From positions 96,001 through 160,000 of the forward strand of contig JAVHQC010000020.1 in NCBI GenBank assembly GCA_036170915.1: a stretch of 64,000 bases of DNA, in the 5' to 3' direction. Position numbers and translations under genes: made by a program. Positions 9,838 through 63,445 of the stretch are shown in pieces; the first letter of the stretch is position 1, and every line of letters begins with the position of its first letter. The notes beneath the pieces are model-generated. The model saw only the letters and a program-made list of their open reading frames with translations. It was not told the DNA's origin and searched no databases. This DNA comes from Cyanobacteria bacterium auto_48_18. GTDB taxonomy: Bacteria > Cyanobacteriota > Vampirovibrionia > Obscuribacterales > Obscuribacteraceae.

Positions 9838-9865
9838 AAACTGGATGGATATCCATCTATGGTTT
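9838..9865. repeat. Dispersed intergenic palindrome, copy 1
   Basis: aaactggatggat|atccatctatggttt; perfect 14-bp core at 9844-9857. Confidence 0.8.
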
Positions 9866-18802: not shown

Positions 18803-18828
18803 ACCTTGGATCGATATCGATCCAAGGT
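18803..18828. repeat. Dispersed intergenic palindrome, copy 2 (perfect 26 bp)
   Basis: accttggatcgat|atcgatccaaggt. Confidence 0.95.
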
Positions 18829-26919: not shown

Positions 26920-26947
26920 AAACTTGGATCGATATCGATCCAAGTTT
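26920..26947. repeat. Dispersed intergenic palindrome, copy 3 (perfect 28 bp)
   Basis: aaacttggatcgat|atcgatccaagttt. Confidence 0.95.
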
Positions 26948-37376: not shown

Positions 37377-37404
37377 AAACTTGGATCGATATCCATCCGG
37401 GTTC
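37377..37404. repeat. Dispersed intergenic palindrome, copy 5
   Basis: aaacttggatcgat|atccatccgggttc. Confidence 0.85.
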
Positions 37405-37580
37405 ACCGATTAAAGACTTCCACCTCTCAAATTTAGTCAAATTTAGTACTAAATATGGTGCTAGATTTGCTTTGCACTATTAATAGTCAAAAAACAGCCA
37501 TTTCAAATAATAGTTTTCATTTTGTTTGAACTTTCCCGTTCGATTTTACGTTGAACATAATAGGACCGGGAGGGAAAGTC

Positions 37581-38639
37581 ATGGCCAAGTCAGAAGCTGA
37601 AATCGCGCTGGGCATTGCGATTAAGAAGACATACAGAGCGTTTAACCGCAAGATAAGAACTGATGGCGACGCTGCCGATCTTATTTTCAATAAACTAAAA
37701 AAACAAAAGCGGATTAGATGTCATTGCGGCTGCACTAAAGTGCATCGCAGCACAGGCAGTCGAATATTTGTATGTCAGGCGTGTAAAGCTAAAACACATT
37801 TTACGGCTGGTACTGCCTATGAAGGAGCAGGACGCTTGCGCGCTAGGCTCGGAGTAATTTATTTCGCGGAGCGTAATCTCATTTTGACGGCTTCGAAAGT
37901 AGCGCAACTATTTAAAATTGGTAGCGGCACCGCACGCAACATAGTTTTAAATCAGGCGATAATCTTAAATGAAACTATGCCGGATTCTGCTCTCGAGTTA
38001 ACGGGTCACGAAGTAGCATCTTTGATTTATCGCAGAAGTTGTGAAACACCAGCACGGCGACCGCCGTTTGCAGAACAAGAAGAAATTGACAATGAAGTTT
38101 CGCAGTCAGATGGTAGCAATAATGCTGGAAATTGCGAAAGTGATATTACAGAAAACGTTGACGTCGATGGTTTCGCACCCGATCTTAGTGACGCTCAAAA
38201 ACAAGTTTTCGCTGCACTATCGAACGTGCCCCGATCGGCAGATGATCTTTGTATTCTAACTGGCTTACCGGCCGGTATCGTAGGCAGTTCACTAGTGATT
38301 TTGCATCTCGACAATTTGATTGAAGAGTTGCCTGGTGCACGTTACACCCGCATCACCTTGCGCAAGAAATCAGGGCCGTTACCTTCATCGCCGAATGATT
38401 TTGCCATGCTCGAGATCTTGCTCAAGGCTTTTCATACTTTTATAAAATTGTCTTCGAAGGGTGTGTCAAGAAAGTCTATGCAGCTTTACTTGGCTCAGTT
38501 CTGGTATTACGTTGATAAAGGGCGCTGGCGTAAAAATGATCTCTTCAATTTATACCTTGATCACGCTCCGCTGGGCCCGCTAGACGTGCGGAACTTCGTT
38601 TCTTCAAATCGATTGAAACTGCCATTAGTTTCAATATAA
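37581..38639 (+). CDS. IS1595-transposase-derived protein with internal DprA-like winged helix
   Basis: Zn ribbon CHCGC...CQAC then HFTAGT; HTH-like ASKVAQLFKIGSGTA; C-terminal KGVSRKSMQLYLAQF; wHTH LSDAQKQVFAAL...LIEELPGARY; ATG at 37581 with GGAGG SD. Confidence 0.7.
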   Translation: MAKSEAEIALGIAIKKTYRAFNRKIRTDGDAADLIFNKLKKQKRIRCHCGCTKVHRSTGSRIFVCQACKAKTHFTAGTAYEGAGRLRARLGVIYFAERNLILTASKVAQLFKIGSGTARNIVLNQAIILNETMPDSALELTGHEVASLIYRRSCETPARRPPFAEQEEIDNEVSQSDGSNNAGNCESDITENVDVDGFAPDLSDAQKQVFAALSNVPRSADDLCILTGLPAGIVGSSLVILHLDNLIEELPGARYTRITLRKKSGPLPSSPNDFAMLEILLKAFHTFIKLSSKGVSRKSMQLYLAQFWYYVDKGRWRKNDLFNLYLDHAPLGPLDVRNFVSSNRLKLPLVSI

Positions 38640-42715: not shown

Positions 42716-42751
42716 TTTAAAACCTGGATGGATATCCATCCAGGTTTTAAA
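42716..42751. repeat. Dispersed intergenic palindrome, copy 6 (perfect 36 bp)
   Basis: tttaaaacctggatggat|atccatccaggttttaaa. Confidence 0.95.
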
Positions 42752-59831: not shown

Positions 59832-59998
59832 CGCTATGTGCCTATCTGGCTAAAATATTTGCCCAATTTTGAAAAAATTGGCAAATATATTGAACTTTTG
59901 GGGCTGGTTGGACGTAGTAATAAGAGGGAATTACTTAGAATTAGAGTGGCTGAGGTGCAATTCTCAGTTAAGCGCTAATTGGCATTGCCAGGAGAGTC

Positions 59999-62900
59999 AT
60001 GAGTCCTCGTCCATACGTACCACTGCATTTGCACACCGAATATAGTCTGCTCGATGGCGCCACCATGATAAAAGATCTGGTGAAGAAAGCCAAAGCAGAG
60101 AATATGCCGGCGGTTGCCATTACCGATCATGGTGTCATGTACGGTGCCGTTGAGCTGACAAAAAAATGTCAGGAAGTAGGTGGTCTCAAGCCTATCATCG
60201 GCTGCGAGGCTTATATCATCGATGGTGATATTAAAGACAAATCGGCCAAGCAACCGCTCTATCACCTGACTATGCTCTCGCGCAATAAAGAAGGCTATCG
60301 CAATCTGGTGCGCTTAAATTCCCGCGCTCATTTGCAAGGCTTTTATTACAAGCCGCGCATCAATAAAGAAATGCTCGAGGCGCAAAAAGAGGGCCTGATC
60401 ATTCTTTCGGGTTGTCTTGGTGCAGAGCTTTGTCAGCATTTGCTCAAAGACGATTATAAAAAAGCTCTAGAAGTGGCCGACTGGTATAAACAAACTTTCG
60501 GCGAAAATTACTACATTGAAATTCAAGATCACGGCATGCCCGAAGATCGCAAAGTCAACCGCTCGCTTGTGCAAATCGCTCGCGAGCTAAAAATCAAGTT
60601 GACTTGCACAAATGACAGTCACTTCACTAACAAACAAGATGCAAAGGCGCATGACTGCTTGCTTTGCATTCAGATGGGCAAGAACGTTACCGACTCCAAT
60701 CGCATGAAATTTACCGGTTGGGAATACATCAAAAATGGCGATGAGATGGCTTATCTTTTTCGCGATCACCTTGATACTGAAATCATTGAAGAGTCGATTT
60801 TAAGCACTTTAGAAATTGCCGACAAAGTTGAAATGGTCAAATTGGCCAGCGAACCACGCTTGCCTAATTTTGAAGTACCGCAAGGGCACACAGCCGAAAG
60901 TTATCTCAATCGACTGGTCTTTGATGGGCTGAGAGAGCGCTTTCCTGAGTGGAATCAAGAAATAGAAGATCGCGCTTTTCGCGAACTAAAAGTAATCGAA
61001 GATATGAATTTTGCTTCTTACTTTTTAATTGTGGCCGACTTCATCGATTACGCTCGCAAAAAAGATATTCCGGTAGGGCCTGGTCGAGGGTCAGCCGCCG
61101 GATCAATTGTGGCTTATGCTCTTGGTATTACCAATATTGATCCTTTGCGCTACAACCTGCTCTTTGAGCGGTTTTTGAACCCTGAGCGTAAGAGCATGCC
61201 TGATATTGATACTGACTTTTGTATCGAACGGCGTGGTGAGGTAATTAAGTATTGCGCTGAAAAATACGGCGAAGACAGAGTTGCTCAAATCATTACCTTC
61301 AACCGCATGACCTCCAAAGCCGTCATTAAAGACGTGGCAAGAGTGCTCGAATTTCCTTTCGGTGAATCAAACAAGCTCGCCAAAATGGTACCGGTTGTGC
61401 GCGGTAAGCCAACACCTCTAGATGAAATGGTGGAGGAGCATCCTGAATTCAAAAAGGTCTACCAGACTGATGATTACGCCAAACAAGTAATTGACCTGGC
61501 GCGCAAACTCGAAGGCTGCAACAAAACCTTTGGTATGCATGCTGCTGGTGTAGTGATCTCTGACGTGCCTATGGAAGAAATGATTCCGCTGCAGAGGAAC
61601 AACGACGGCACCATCATTGCGCAATACTACATGGAAGACGCAGCCTATGTGGGCCTCGTTAAAATGGACTTCCTTGGCCTGCGCAACTTGACCATGATCG
61701 ACAAAGCTTGCAAGCGCATTAAAGAAGTGCGCGGCATTGAAATCATTCCTGACAAAATTCCACTTGATGATGAGAAGACTTTCCAGACAATTTCAAATGG
61801 TGATCTGGCCGGAGTATTTCAGTTAGAAACATCCGCTGGTATGAAACAGGTAGCTCGAGACATGCGCCCTTCCAACATGGAAGACATCTCAGCGCTGATT
61901 GCACTCTATCGCCCAGGCCCACTCGATTCTGGAATGATCGATAAATTTATTGATTGCAAACACGGCAAAACCAAAATTACTTATCAAACGCCTTTGCTTG
62001 AGACTATTCTCAAGCCTACTTATGGTCAGATTGTTTATCAAGAACAGATCATGCAAATTGCTCAGGTGCTTGGTGGTTACAGTCTCGGCCAAGCAGACCT
62101 GTTGCGCCGGGCCATGGGTAAAAAGCTGCCCGCTGAAATGGAAAAGCAGCGCGCTTTGTTTGTGGAAGGCTGTGCGAAAAATTCGGTCAGTCCTGAAATC
62201 GCCAACAATCTCTTCGATATTATGGTGCAGTTTGCCGAGTATTGCTTCAACAAGTCACACAGTGCGGCCTACGGAGTAGTCACTTATCAAACTGCTTATC
62301 TAAAGACACACTATCCTGTGGAATATATGGCTGCTGTACTTTCTTCGGTTTCGTCAGATACCGACAAAGTGCAGGGTTACATCGCTGAATGTCAGGCTAT
62401 GAATATTGATATTTTGCCGCCTGATATGAATGTATCAGGATCTGACTTTACCTCAGATGGTGGTGCCATTCGTTTTGGACTGTCAGCCACCAAGGGTCTG
62501 GGTGACGCCGCTGTGCAAGCCATTGTTGCCGAGCGCGAGCGCGGTGGTACTTTTGCCACCATGCAAGATTTTCTCGACCGCATCGACTTGCGTCTGGTGA
62601 ACAAAAAATCGCTAGAATCGCTTATTAAGTCTGGTGCTTGCGTGGGTCTCGGCATGAGCCGCAAGCAAGCCTTGACCAATCTTGATTCGCTGGTTGATGC
62701 TGCCAACCGCCGGCAAACTTCGAAAAATACTGGACAGATCAGTTTGTTCAGCTTAGGCGAATCGCAAGGCATCAATTTAGAGACGCCGCTGATTGGCGAT
62801 CCTTCTGAATTTGGCGAAGGCGAGCTGCAAACCATGGAGCACGAGCTGCTTGGCTTTTACGTCACCAGCCATCCTCTTAAGCGCATTGCTAATCGATTGC

Positions 62901-63445
62901 GATATTTGACCACGCACTCGGTCAAAGAAATGAAAGAGTCGCCTGACGGCACCACTGTCATTCTTGGTGGCCTGGCTAATTCTATTGAGAAGAAACTGAC
63001 CAAACAAAATAAGCTGCTTTGCATAATCCACCTTGAAGACCTAACCGGCAAAGCCGAGATAGTCCTTTATAGCGAGGCTCTGGAGAAAGTTTCTTCTGAT
63101 GTGCTCTTGCCCCAATCACTTCTACTTGTTAAGGGAAAAGTTAAGAAGAACGAAGAGAGCACTTCTGTGATGGGCTCAAGCATTCGTCGCATCGGCGACG
63201 CTTCCATGGTCGACGTGATCTTCAGCACTAATCAGTCTTTCTCTGACCTGCACAGACTGAAAGACTTGCTCATTTTGCACAAAGGCGAAGATCCGGTTTT
63301 GTTGCACTTCCCTCAGGGCAAGCGCTCTTCAGCCATTCTCGTCGGTGCTCAGTTCTGGGTTGATGCCGCTTCCAGTCTGCCGGCTGCCATCGAAACCAAT
63401 TTCGCCGAGACCGTCAAGGTCAGAGTGAATAAGATTCATATTTAG
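59999..63445 (+). CDS. dnaE: DNA polymerase III alpha subunit (unsplit, intein-free)
   Basis: LHLHTEYSLLDG PHP domain, GRGSAAGS, PDIDTDF and FNKSHS motifs. Confidence 0.98.
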   Translation: MSPRPYVPLHLHTEYSLLDGATMIKDLVKKAKAENMPAVAITDHGVMYGAVELTKKCQEVGGLKPIIGCEAYIIDGDIKDKSAKQPLYHLTMLSRNKEGYRNLVRLNSRAHLQGFYYKPRINKEMLEAQKEGLIILSGCLGAELCQHLLKDDYKKALEVADWYKQTFGENYYIEIQDHGMPEDRKVNRSLVQIARELKIKLTCTNDSHFTNKQDAKAHDCLLCIQMGKNVTDSNRMKFTGWEYIKNGDEMAYLFRDHLDTEIIEESILSTLEIADKVEMVKLASEPRLPNFEVPQGHTAESYLNRLVFDGLRERFPEWNQEIEDRAFRELKVIEDMNFASYFLIVADFIDYARKKDIPVGPGRGSAAGSIVAYALGITNIDPLRYNLLFERFLNPERKSMPDIDTDFCIERRGEVIKYCAEKYGEDRVAQIITFNRMTSKAVIKDVARVLEFPFGESNKLAKMVPVVRGKPTPLDEMVEEHPEFKKVYQTDDYAKQVIDLARKLEGCNKTFGMHAAGVVISDVPMEEMIPLQRNNDGTIIAQYYMEDAAYVGLVKMDFLGLRNLTMIDKACKRIKEVRGIEIIPDKIPLDDEKTFQTISNGDLAGVFQLETSAGMKQVARDMRPSNMEDISALIALYRPGPLDSGMIDKFIDCKHGKTKITYQTPLLETILKPTYGQIVYQEQIMQIAQVLGGYSLGQADLLRRAMGKKLPAEMEKQRALFVEGCAKNSVSPEIANNLFDIMVQFAEYCFNKSHSAAYGVVTYQTAYLKTHYPVEYMAAVLSSVSSDTDKVQGYIAECQAMNIDILPPDMNVSGSDFTSDGGAIRFGLSATKGLGDAAVQAIVAERERGGTFATMQDFLDRIDLRLVNKKSLESLIKSGACVGLGMSRKQALTNLDSLVDAANRRQTSKNTGQISLFSLGESQGINLETPLIGDPSEFGEGELQTMEHELLGFYVTSHPLKRIANRLRYLTTHSVKEMKESPDGTTVILGGLANSIEKKLTKQNKLLCIIHLEDLTGKAEIVLYSEALEKVSSDVLLPQSLLLVKGKVKKNEESTSVMGSSIRRIGDASMVDVIFSTNQSFSDLHRLKDLLILHKGEDPVLLHFPQGKRSSAILVGAQFWVDAASSLPAAIETNFAETVKVRVNKIHI

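Follow-up and report, generated by a model that had tools for sequence, protein, structure and literature searches.

RAYTs are typically single-copy genes of the HUH class with catalytically active products. Palindromic sites confined to one region of a chromosome are familiar from the matS/MatP, parS/ParB, and Noc systems. In natural transformation, the uptake machinery recognizes the DUS and USS motifs, hundreds to thousands of which are spread over the whole genome (PMC2817400; this and the other sources are cited for their accessible parts). The winged helix of DprA binds ComM and recruits it for branch migration in Helicobacter pylori and Vibrio cholerae, and that of H. pylori does not bind DNA, according to the accessible text of 10.1101/2024.10.21.619469. 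ComM is a bidirectional helicase, which is needed to integrate heterologous DNA and matters most for such DNA (accessible text of 10.1101/147660). In Legionella, comEC, comM, radC, and comF are co-regulated competence genes; comM is often disrupted by mobile elements, and the ways in which such elements inhibit transformation include this disruption, RocRp, RokLS20, ComI, and Paratox, as far as the accessible part of PMC12378983 describes them.

Here we analyze gene X, located in the window (the whole 64,000-nt stretch of DNA under study) in a genome of the Obscuribacteraceae. What is described here is real, shared across the family of X, and unusual; its anatomy is new, and the mechanism offered below is a proposal. 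No description of the X family or of its regulon was found in the main texts of the mostly freely accessible literature that was searched.

Gene X and Its Locus

Gene X is an unbroken ORF of 352 codons (37581-38639, +), as had been predicted from the letters alone. It is flanked by rimO and a convergent gene for a DnaJ-domain protein, and a Shine-Dalgarno sequence supports its start (Table 1). The rimO-dnaJ interval contains X in 3 of 15 congeners and a TPR gene in the other 12; at this locus, X replaced a TPR gene. The latter, recognized by eye by its TPR repeats (L004-L015), encodes a protein of about 410 aa, and this assembly, which is 86% complete, holds no close copy of it (best identity 28%).

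Table 1. Features of gene X and its surroundings, with positions in the window.
Feature	Position	Strand	Remark
Putative cognate site, tandem spacer	9843..9858	.	~28 kb upstream of X; kept in G006
Putative cognate site, divergent spacer	18808..18823	.	kept in G006
Putative cognate site, convergent spacer	26926..26941	.	kept in G006 and G009
Putative cognate palindromic site adjoining gene X	37383..37398	.	GGATCGATATCCATCC
ECF-sigma-type promoter motif TTGAAC-N17-CGTT	37526..37552	+	common to comM, comEC, comF, yraN, radC, recA, and the ECF sigma gene
Shine-Dalgarno GGAGG	37569..37573	+	from sequence; supports gene X start at 37581
Gene X, 352-aa IS1595-derived protein without RNase H/DDE core, with DprA-type winged helix	37581..38639	+
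IS1595-type Zn ribbon, aa 41-70	37701..37790	+	C47, C49, C65, and C68 conserved 99-100% (149 members)
Helix-turn-helix, aa 104-131	37890..37973	+	homologous to IS1595 HTH
Degenerate first catalytic strand, aa 138-142, then family motif	37992..38075	+
Acidic linker, aa 166-198	38076..38174	+	at the expected place of the RNase H core
DprA-type winged helix, aa 199-257	38175..38351	+	helix consensus near host DprA
IS1595-like C-terminal helices	38391..38621	+	KGVSRK...QLYLAQFW; family consensus HGISRKYLQxYLA; no conserved catalytic Glu
Putative cognate site between convergent rnhB and DnaJ-domain gene	42726..42741	.

Domain Architecture and IS1595 Ancestry

The original prediction described X as an IS1595-derived scaffold with a Zn ribbon, an HTH, and a C-terminal motif, and the analysis bears this out. 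A profile of 149 family members aligned with an intact IS1595 transposase at an hhalign probability of 99.1% over 136 columns, which span the Zn ribbon and the HTH and stop just beyond the first catalytic strand; Pfam alone matched Zn_ribbon_IS1595 to aa 41-70 weakly and below the cut-off (E 0.039). The HTH is presumably the site-recognition element. The catalytic strand is followed by the family motif R-R-S-x-E-T-P-x-x-x-H-P-x-x-E (aa 151-165), in which X has Pro at the His position. X is an atypical member of the family, with Pro161 and Lys293 in place of conserved His residues and Tyr325 in place of a conserved Cys. Another genome, G481 (L184-L205), contains 18 highly diverged copies, many of which have long acidic inserts around the winged helix and have lost the H-P-x-x-E motif.

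The predicted lack of a catalytic core was confirmed. X gave no Pfam match to DDE_Tnp_IS1595 (PF12762), the family alignment has no triad columns, and two structural models lack an RNase H sheet. As a positive control, the intact IS1595 of a congener matched the DDE domain at E 2.9e-23. In our reading of the alignment, the first catalytic Asp falls at or beside a column that holds Ser in 77% of the 149 members and corresponds to G142 in X, and no D/E-rich column is found at the expected place of the catalytic Glu. The AlphaFold2 models represent X and a member of 261 aa that lacks the winged helix; both have high confidence (pLDDT 92.0 and 92.2) and only short strands. Foldseek searches with both models returned nothing at E <= 0.001, which is not proof of a new fold. 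With VIA-align, full-length X matched only winged helices (Z up to 9.9, rmsd 1.9 over 62 residues), and the core, represented by the member without winged helix, reached a Z of at most 3.5. Sequence searches against NCBIfam and the PDB yielded only weak Zn-ribbon and winged-helix matches, and Pfam no HUH (Y1) transposase in X. Where the RNase H core would be, X has the acidic linker that had been noted in its place (aa 166-198), which is variable and modeled partly with low confidence.

The segment that had appeared DprA-like (38181-38351, aa 201-257) is a winged helix, matched by Pfam DprA_WH at aa 199-252 with E 2.4e-11 and 43.9 bits (cut-off 22.9). The Rossmann domain of DprA (DNA_processg_A) has no Pfam match in X, and a true dprA was found elsewhere in this genome. 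The family consensus of the third helix, LSAALTMLEL, and of the turn that follows is close to LSSTLTMLEL of DprA in these genomes, so that the winged helix was probably captured from host dprA. By analogy with DprA, it is more likely a protein-binding module, with ComM as candidate partner, than a DNA-binding one. At aa 242, X has His where 83% of the members have Glu. Judged by spacing, this position appears to match a Glu that is needed for ComM binding in V. cholerae DprA (accessible text of 10.1101/2024.10.21.619469), and by the same analogy the X copy with its His may bind ComM only weakly.

A Putative Transformation Regulon

The promoter motif upstream of X is a property of the whole family. 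Among the non-redundant family genes of other genomes, 130 of 133 have the pattern TGAAC-N16/17-CGT upstream, as do 9 of the 10 copies of this genome, against a background of 62 among 4009 genes of this genome. With gene names taken from Pfam domains, the strict motif also occurs in this genome before comM, comEC, comF, yraN, radC, and recA, before priA, recJ, xseA, and dnaE, before an ECF sigma gene with a zf-HC2 anti-sigma, and before unrelated genes (Spy-like, DUF1800, an acyltransferase). The dnaE gene of the window (59999-63445) has TTGAAC-N17-CGT at 59890-59916 (+). Across genera, the motif precedes comM in 29 of 30 loci (best 30 of 65 matched genomes), comEC in 30 of 30 (best 30 of 64), and the ECF sigma gene itself in 20 of 20 (best 20 of 87), with no match in the controls; before dprA it is missing in the four genomes checked. 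The complete genome G429 gave 13 matches to the strict promoter pattern (control 4), none of them at com genes, and a looser pattern found the motif at its comEC. Of the 103 other family genomes, 86 contain the operon of ECF sigma and zf-HC2 anti-sigma (L242, G000:C23:45300-47500).

This sigma factor likely is the competence sigma of Obscuribacterales, as far as sequence can tell, and it would read the motif because its own gene carries it, apparently as a self-promoter. X, comM, comEC, comF, yraN, radC, and recA, which share the one motif, thus appear to form a transformation regulon. Since repair and envelope-type genes also belong to this set, the regulon could be a broader stress regulon.

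A second multi-copy family is found behind the same promoter motif, with one copy confirmed as DUF6088 and four recognized by eye (G000 C15:59385, C22:109969, C22:31220, C25:106001, and C35:228978; L308). Upstream of two of its copies is a palindrome whose class is matched about 11 times in the genome, and this second family may be a system parallel to X.

Palindromes Centered on Gene X and Its Paralogs

The palindromic site that adjoins X lies about 140 bp before its promoter and is a perfect 40-nt palindrome in the G009 ortholog. The site type of X, GGAT[CG]GATATC[CG]ATCC, has only six matches in 4.94 Mb, five of which are within 28 kb of X (p 8e-8 for four of five, with the adjacent site removed). 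G006 retains all five, and G009 retains the three whose positions are covered there. The site between rnhB and the DnaJ-domain gene accompanies X in the three genomes that have the gene here; 11 others have a short spacer without the site, one of them judged by spacer length alone. Around the sister paralog C4, 8 of the 11 matches to a related site are within 31 kb of the gene.

The same association recurs across the family. In 90 of 126 genes, the 300 nt ahead of the promoter contain a palindrome with the core ACCGATATCGGT or a variant, a count to be compared with 8.6 in shuffles and 13 of 100 in windows further upstream; the core pattern misses diverged types, that of X among them. The palindrome arms are paralog-specific, and gene-proximal palindromes reach perfect symmetry over up to 60 nt. 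In the complete genome G429, 103 site matches were found (control 11), 52 of them in four 80-kb windows that are centered on its four genes and make up 6% of the chromosome. Each of these clouds has its own arm sequence, with the sites packed most closely around the gene; according to a rough ORF call, 22 of the 52 cloud sites fall in ORFs. The complete genome G003 behaves likewise, with 9 of its 14 dispersed site loci no more than 55 kb from a gene (p 3e-5). Of 89 genomes that have the family, 66 contain a 14-nt form of the site; among 18 that lack it, a single genome does, with one occurrence. Here p-values across genomes overstate the case because kin genomes are not independent; one 14-nt pattern gave 0-125 matches per genome, clustered around the genes. 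Thus, X and many of its paralogs sit at the center of their own palindrome clouds, and because these cognate palindromes track the gene, X is very probably DNA-binding. The C3-type and C23-type sites (21 matches each) are spread over the assembly without clustering, and paralogs C15, C22, and C25 have no clear cloud. Further palindrome classes of G000, with about 21, 18, 17, and 9 near-matches, have no paralog assigned to them.

The 83 site loci of this genome comprise 17 in ORFs and 66 in intergenic regions, and the latter include 27 convergent spacers (background 13%) and 10 divergent ones (background 35%). Because the intergenic sites favor convergent spacers, we do not regard them as operators. 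The possibility that dispersed sites are relics of promoters was rejected, as TTGAAC is near 12 of the 66 intergenic sites compared to a background of 17%. Among 26 anchored orthologous positions, the only ones counted, 25 have retained their site, with DNA identity at about 75%.

The sites originated in more than one way. Those in two kinase-like genes (recognized by eye; G000 C8:45057-45106, 57809, 58689, and 60207; peptides PLTV and STVNG) are in frame and free of indels, and a 36-nt in-frame duplication of a site was also observed. Other sites arose through 45-50-nt inserts or tandem duplication. In L281 (G000:C20:22390-23649), which is a conserved gene, 18 nt of L286 are replaced in frame by a segment of 45 nt that bears a palindrome and adds nine residues, and in one case an indel of about 50 nt carries a site. 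Members of the family without winged helix have tandem arrays of 35-37 nt next to the gene, with 3-23 units that contain the site core (e.g., L055-L059 in G003). By our own count, which drops one frameshifted gene, such arrays precede 20 of 21 of these members, most of the array-bearing genes belonging to two clades, and none of 111 genes flagged as bearing a winged helix.

Distribution, Selection, and Mobility

The X family was found only in Obscuribacterales. It was detected in 88 of the 103 other genomes of Obscuribacteraceae (E <= 1e-35) and, at the same threshold with the best five candidates at most scored per genome, in none of three genomes of the sister family and none of 400 sampled elsewhere in the phylum. 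Named records with the family are mostly Ca. Obscuribacterales or Melainabacteria, and the few under other labels are probably mislabeled bins. A library search returned 672 clusters at E <= 0.001 and 520 at 1e-10. Viral contigs searched with the A3 patterns contained no relative, and the A3 profile found no relative of 717-2045 aa, which is weak evidence.

This genome has 10 copies, nine of full length and one shortened, and the other copies share 24-42% protein identity with X. In G006, all 10 are syntenic on at least one flank, as are seven in G009 but none of the nine copies of the more distant congener G003. Compared with its G006 counterpart, X has a dN/dS of 0.142 at a dS of 0.41 (neighboring genes: dS 0.45-0.47, dN/dS 0.016-0.074), and all 10 paralog pairs fall between 0.09 and 0.20; no dN/dS was taken from the comparison with G009, in which dS is saturated. 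Purifying selection is therefore evident. Copy numbers range from 0 to about 19 per genome, and a FastTree phylogeny of 143 rows contains clades of 19, 10, and 6 rows (support 100), each made up almost wholly of one genome's copies; its deep branches are not resolved. Over short times, then, X stays intact and passes down vertically; over longer ones it increases in number and changes location. Independent expansion in many lineages and the turnover of loci within the genus indicate the behavior of a selfish element. The description of X as a domesticated, non-catalytic protein is accordingly right in its second term, since the DDE core is lacking, and not fully supported in its first.

No inverted repeat brackets X, and a scan for TIRs with TSDs, which recovered three of three intact IS1595 controls with their 8-bp TSDs, found none at the 10 paralogs of this genome, in agreement with the earlier remark that no terminal inverted repeats are visible. 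The controls are the three copies of one intact IS1595 in G003 (L064-L066), which have TIRs and perfect TSDs of 8 bp. In other genomes, 9 of 116 genes gave scattered matches without a common end (mixed-flank control 1 of 116), and three of these nine are the cognate palindromes. Four recent duplicates in G474 have ragged shared ends and no TIRs; upstream of the promoter the shared sequence runs on for 95-353 nt, and downstream of the stop for 10-77 nt. The closest duplicates examined are 78-88% identical in DNA. A relic right TIR after the stop was considered for the G474 copies, where the shared sequence ends at about +10, and was rejected for want of a matching left end or TSD.

A Proposed Function and Its Alternatives

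A competence promoter motif, IS1595 DNA-binding modules without their core, a DprA winged helix, and conserved sites centered on the gene are what was observed. Our tentative reading of these features, which could well prove mistaken, is that X is a selfish gene of transposase origin, able to guard itself against deletion by natural transformation. The ECF sigma factor would switch on competence and with it the production of X, which would bind its chromosomal palindromes as a symmetric dimer, neighboring sites often being 33-40 bp apart. When incoming DNA of an X-minus relative pairs with the flanks of the X locus, bound X would block, trap, or reverse ComM by means of its DprA-mimicking winged helix. 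Branch migration would then fail to cross the locus, and the empty-site DNA could not replace X. An X-plus allele could enter X-minus cells but not the reverse, and through such a conversion bias the gene would persist and new sites would be selected the more strongly the closer their linkage to it. Selection graded by linkage would give rise to the gradient of sites, to sites in coding DNA, and to divergent specificities between paralogs. Members without winged helix might use the dense array of 35-37 bp beside the gene instead.

We favor self-protection because it covers most of the facts. Protection alone leaves some of them unexplained, since some sites arrived as 45-50-nt inserts, and the model is silent on the route by which copies reach new loci. 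In more general terms, X probably represents a new class of selfish gene, which traded catalysis for a host ComM-binding domain and a competence promoter and so biases transformation at its own locus. So framed, the class would include self-shielding as well as steered ComM-driven integration, would seed the site gradient, and would, on balance of what we see, amount to a natural gene drive on the transformation machinery.

Of the alternatives, the first two are not exclusive. One, in itself doubtful, is the idea that mobility has been outsourced, with the ComM-recruiting domain of X in place of the catalytic core. X would bridge sites on the chromosome and on incoming DNA and load ComM there; the result, for which we likewise see a small probability, would be ectopic integration of X and of short site-bearing pieces, perfect palindromes folding back in single strands. 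The ragged, TIR-less ends of the recent G474 duplicates, the 45-nt palindrome that replaced 18 nt in frame, the site-bearing indel of about 50 nt, the perfect symmetry of gene-proximal palindromes over up to 60 nt, and the lineage-specific expansions would all be expected from such a process. However, it does not account for dispersed sites that are kept between species, the indel-free in-frame ones included, an X-minus recipient has no X protein that could assist the entry, and the loci are stable between close species, as the synteny with G006 documents.

It also seems unlikely that X is a host-domesticated competence factor, whose paralogs tag chromosome regions and bring ComM to them, so favoring recombination, or else organize the nucleoid and compact it in competence or stress, comparably to matS/MatP or parS/ParB. 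Membership in a host regulon, presence in 88 of 103 genomes of the family, purifying selection on all 10 pairs, and the regional, regularly spaced sites would suit a host function. Against this, copy number varies from 0 to about 19, no G003 copy is syntenic with this genome, the clouds center on the gene wherever it lands and not on chromosome landmarks, and several of the 15 family genomes without a match to X keep comM, comEC, and the sigma factor.

A cryptic non-DDE active site that copies palindromes locally, in the manner of RAYT/REPIN systems, is very unlikely. Candidate residues do exist (R152, S153, E155, T156, H161, E165, H293, and C325, several of the polar ones 72-99% conserved), and paralog-specific palindromes, the convergent-spacer bias, and the inserted sites would fit. 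X, however, lacks H161, H293, and C325 and yet keeps five conserved sites, several G481 members also are without H-P-x-x-E, many sites are in frame without indels, and the Foldseek and VIA-align searches, a weak test, recognized no nuclease fold (core Z <= 3.5). Most improbable are an ordinary transcription factor with local operators, including self-regulation from the site close to the promoter of X, given that the sites avoid divergent spacers, also lie in ORFs, and have TTGAAC nearby no more often than the background, and a decaying remnant of IS1595, which the ancestry would suggest and a dN/dS of 0.14 refutes, the intact promoter arguing against decay as well.

If self-protection is indeed the function of X, the locus touches on the open question of whether transformation exists to cure chromosomes of parasites, and the gene-centered gradients would preserve a record, in a little-studied lineage, of how far recombination tracts extend. 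The dozens of natural protein/site pairs make these ideas testable in laboratory strains. Whatever X does, the analysis defines a conserved, putatively ECF-sigma-dependent transformation regulon in Obscuribacterales and a large set of paralog-specific protein/palindrome pairs.

Comparison with Known Systems

With the DDE transposases of IS1595 (ISXO2-like) elements, X shares the Zn ribbon, the HTH, the first catalytic strand, and a C-terminal motif of the HGxSRK type. Unlike these, it has no RNase H core, catalytic residues, TIRs, or TSD; its copies are 24-42% identical within the genome and syntenic in G006, whereas IS1595 elements are near-identical copies at variable loci, and it stands under a competence-regulon promoter motif amid cognate palindromes. 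To DprA it is linked by a C-terminal winged helix (PF17782) that matches above the Pfam cut-off, by the helix consensus close to that of host DprA, and by the promoter motif of comM, which points to co-regulation with comM. In X, however, this winged helix is fused to a putative site-specific DNA-binding scaffold and not to a Rossmann domain for ssDNA binding. RAYT/REPIN systems resemble X, as far as accessible sources describe them, in that a transposase-derived gene is flanked by its own dispersed palindromes, which favor convergent spacers. X differs in being multi-copy, apparently catalytically dead, and of IS1595 ancestry, and its sites form a gradient around the gene and are often in frame. 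Judged by the features that define each of these, X is not an IS1595 element, a DprA, or a RAYT.

Other parallels concern the sites and their possible role. DUS and USS likewise are short motifs tied to transformation that accumulate in coding sequences (accessible part of PMC2817400), but the sites of X number tens and fall into several classes per genome, each centered on a protein gene. The inhibitors of transformation encoded by mobile elements also let an element avoid chromosomal curing, with ComM as a frequent target, and according to the accessible part of PMC12378983 they disable competence cell-wide. X would leave competence intact, join its regulon, and shield its own neighborhood, and such a locus-specific shield within the competence regulon would be a strategy unlike the cell-wide shut-off described there (PMC12378983, accessible part). 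For MatP, ParB, and Noc, finally, the searches with X brought up matches to winged helices only, which would be compatible with distant kinship as well as with none, and whereas those systems relate to the origin or terminus, the X family consists of many independent paralog/site pairs in which the sites follow the gene.
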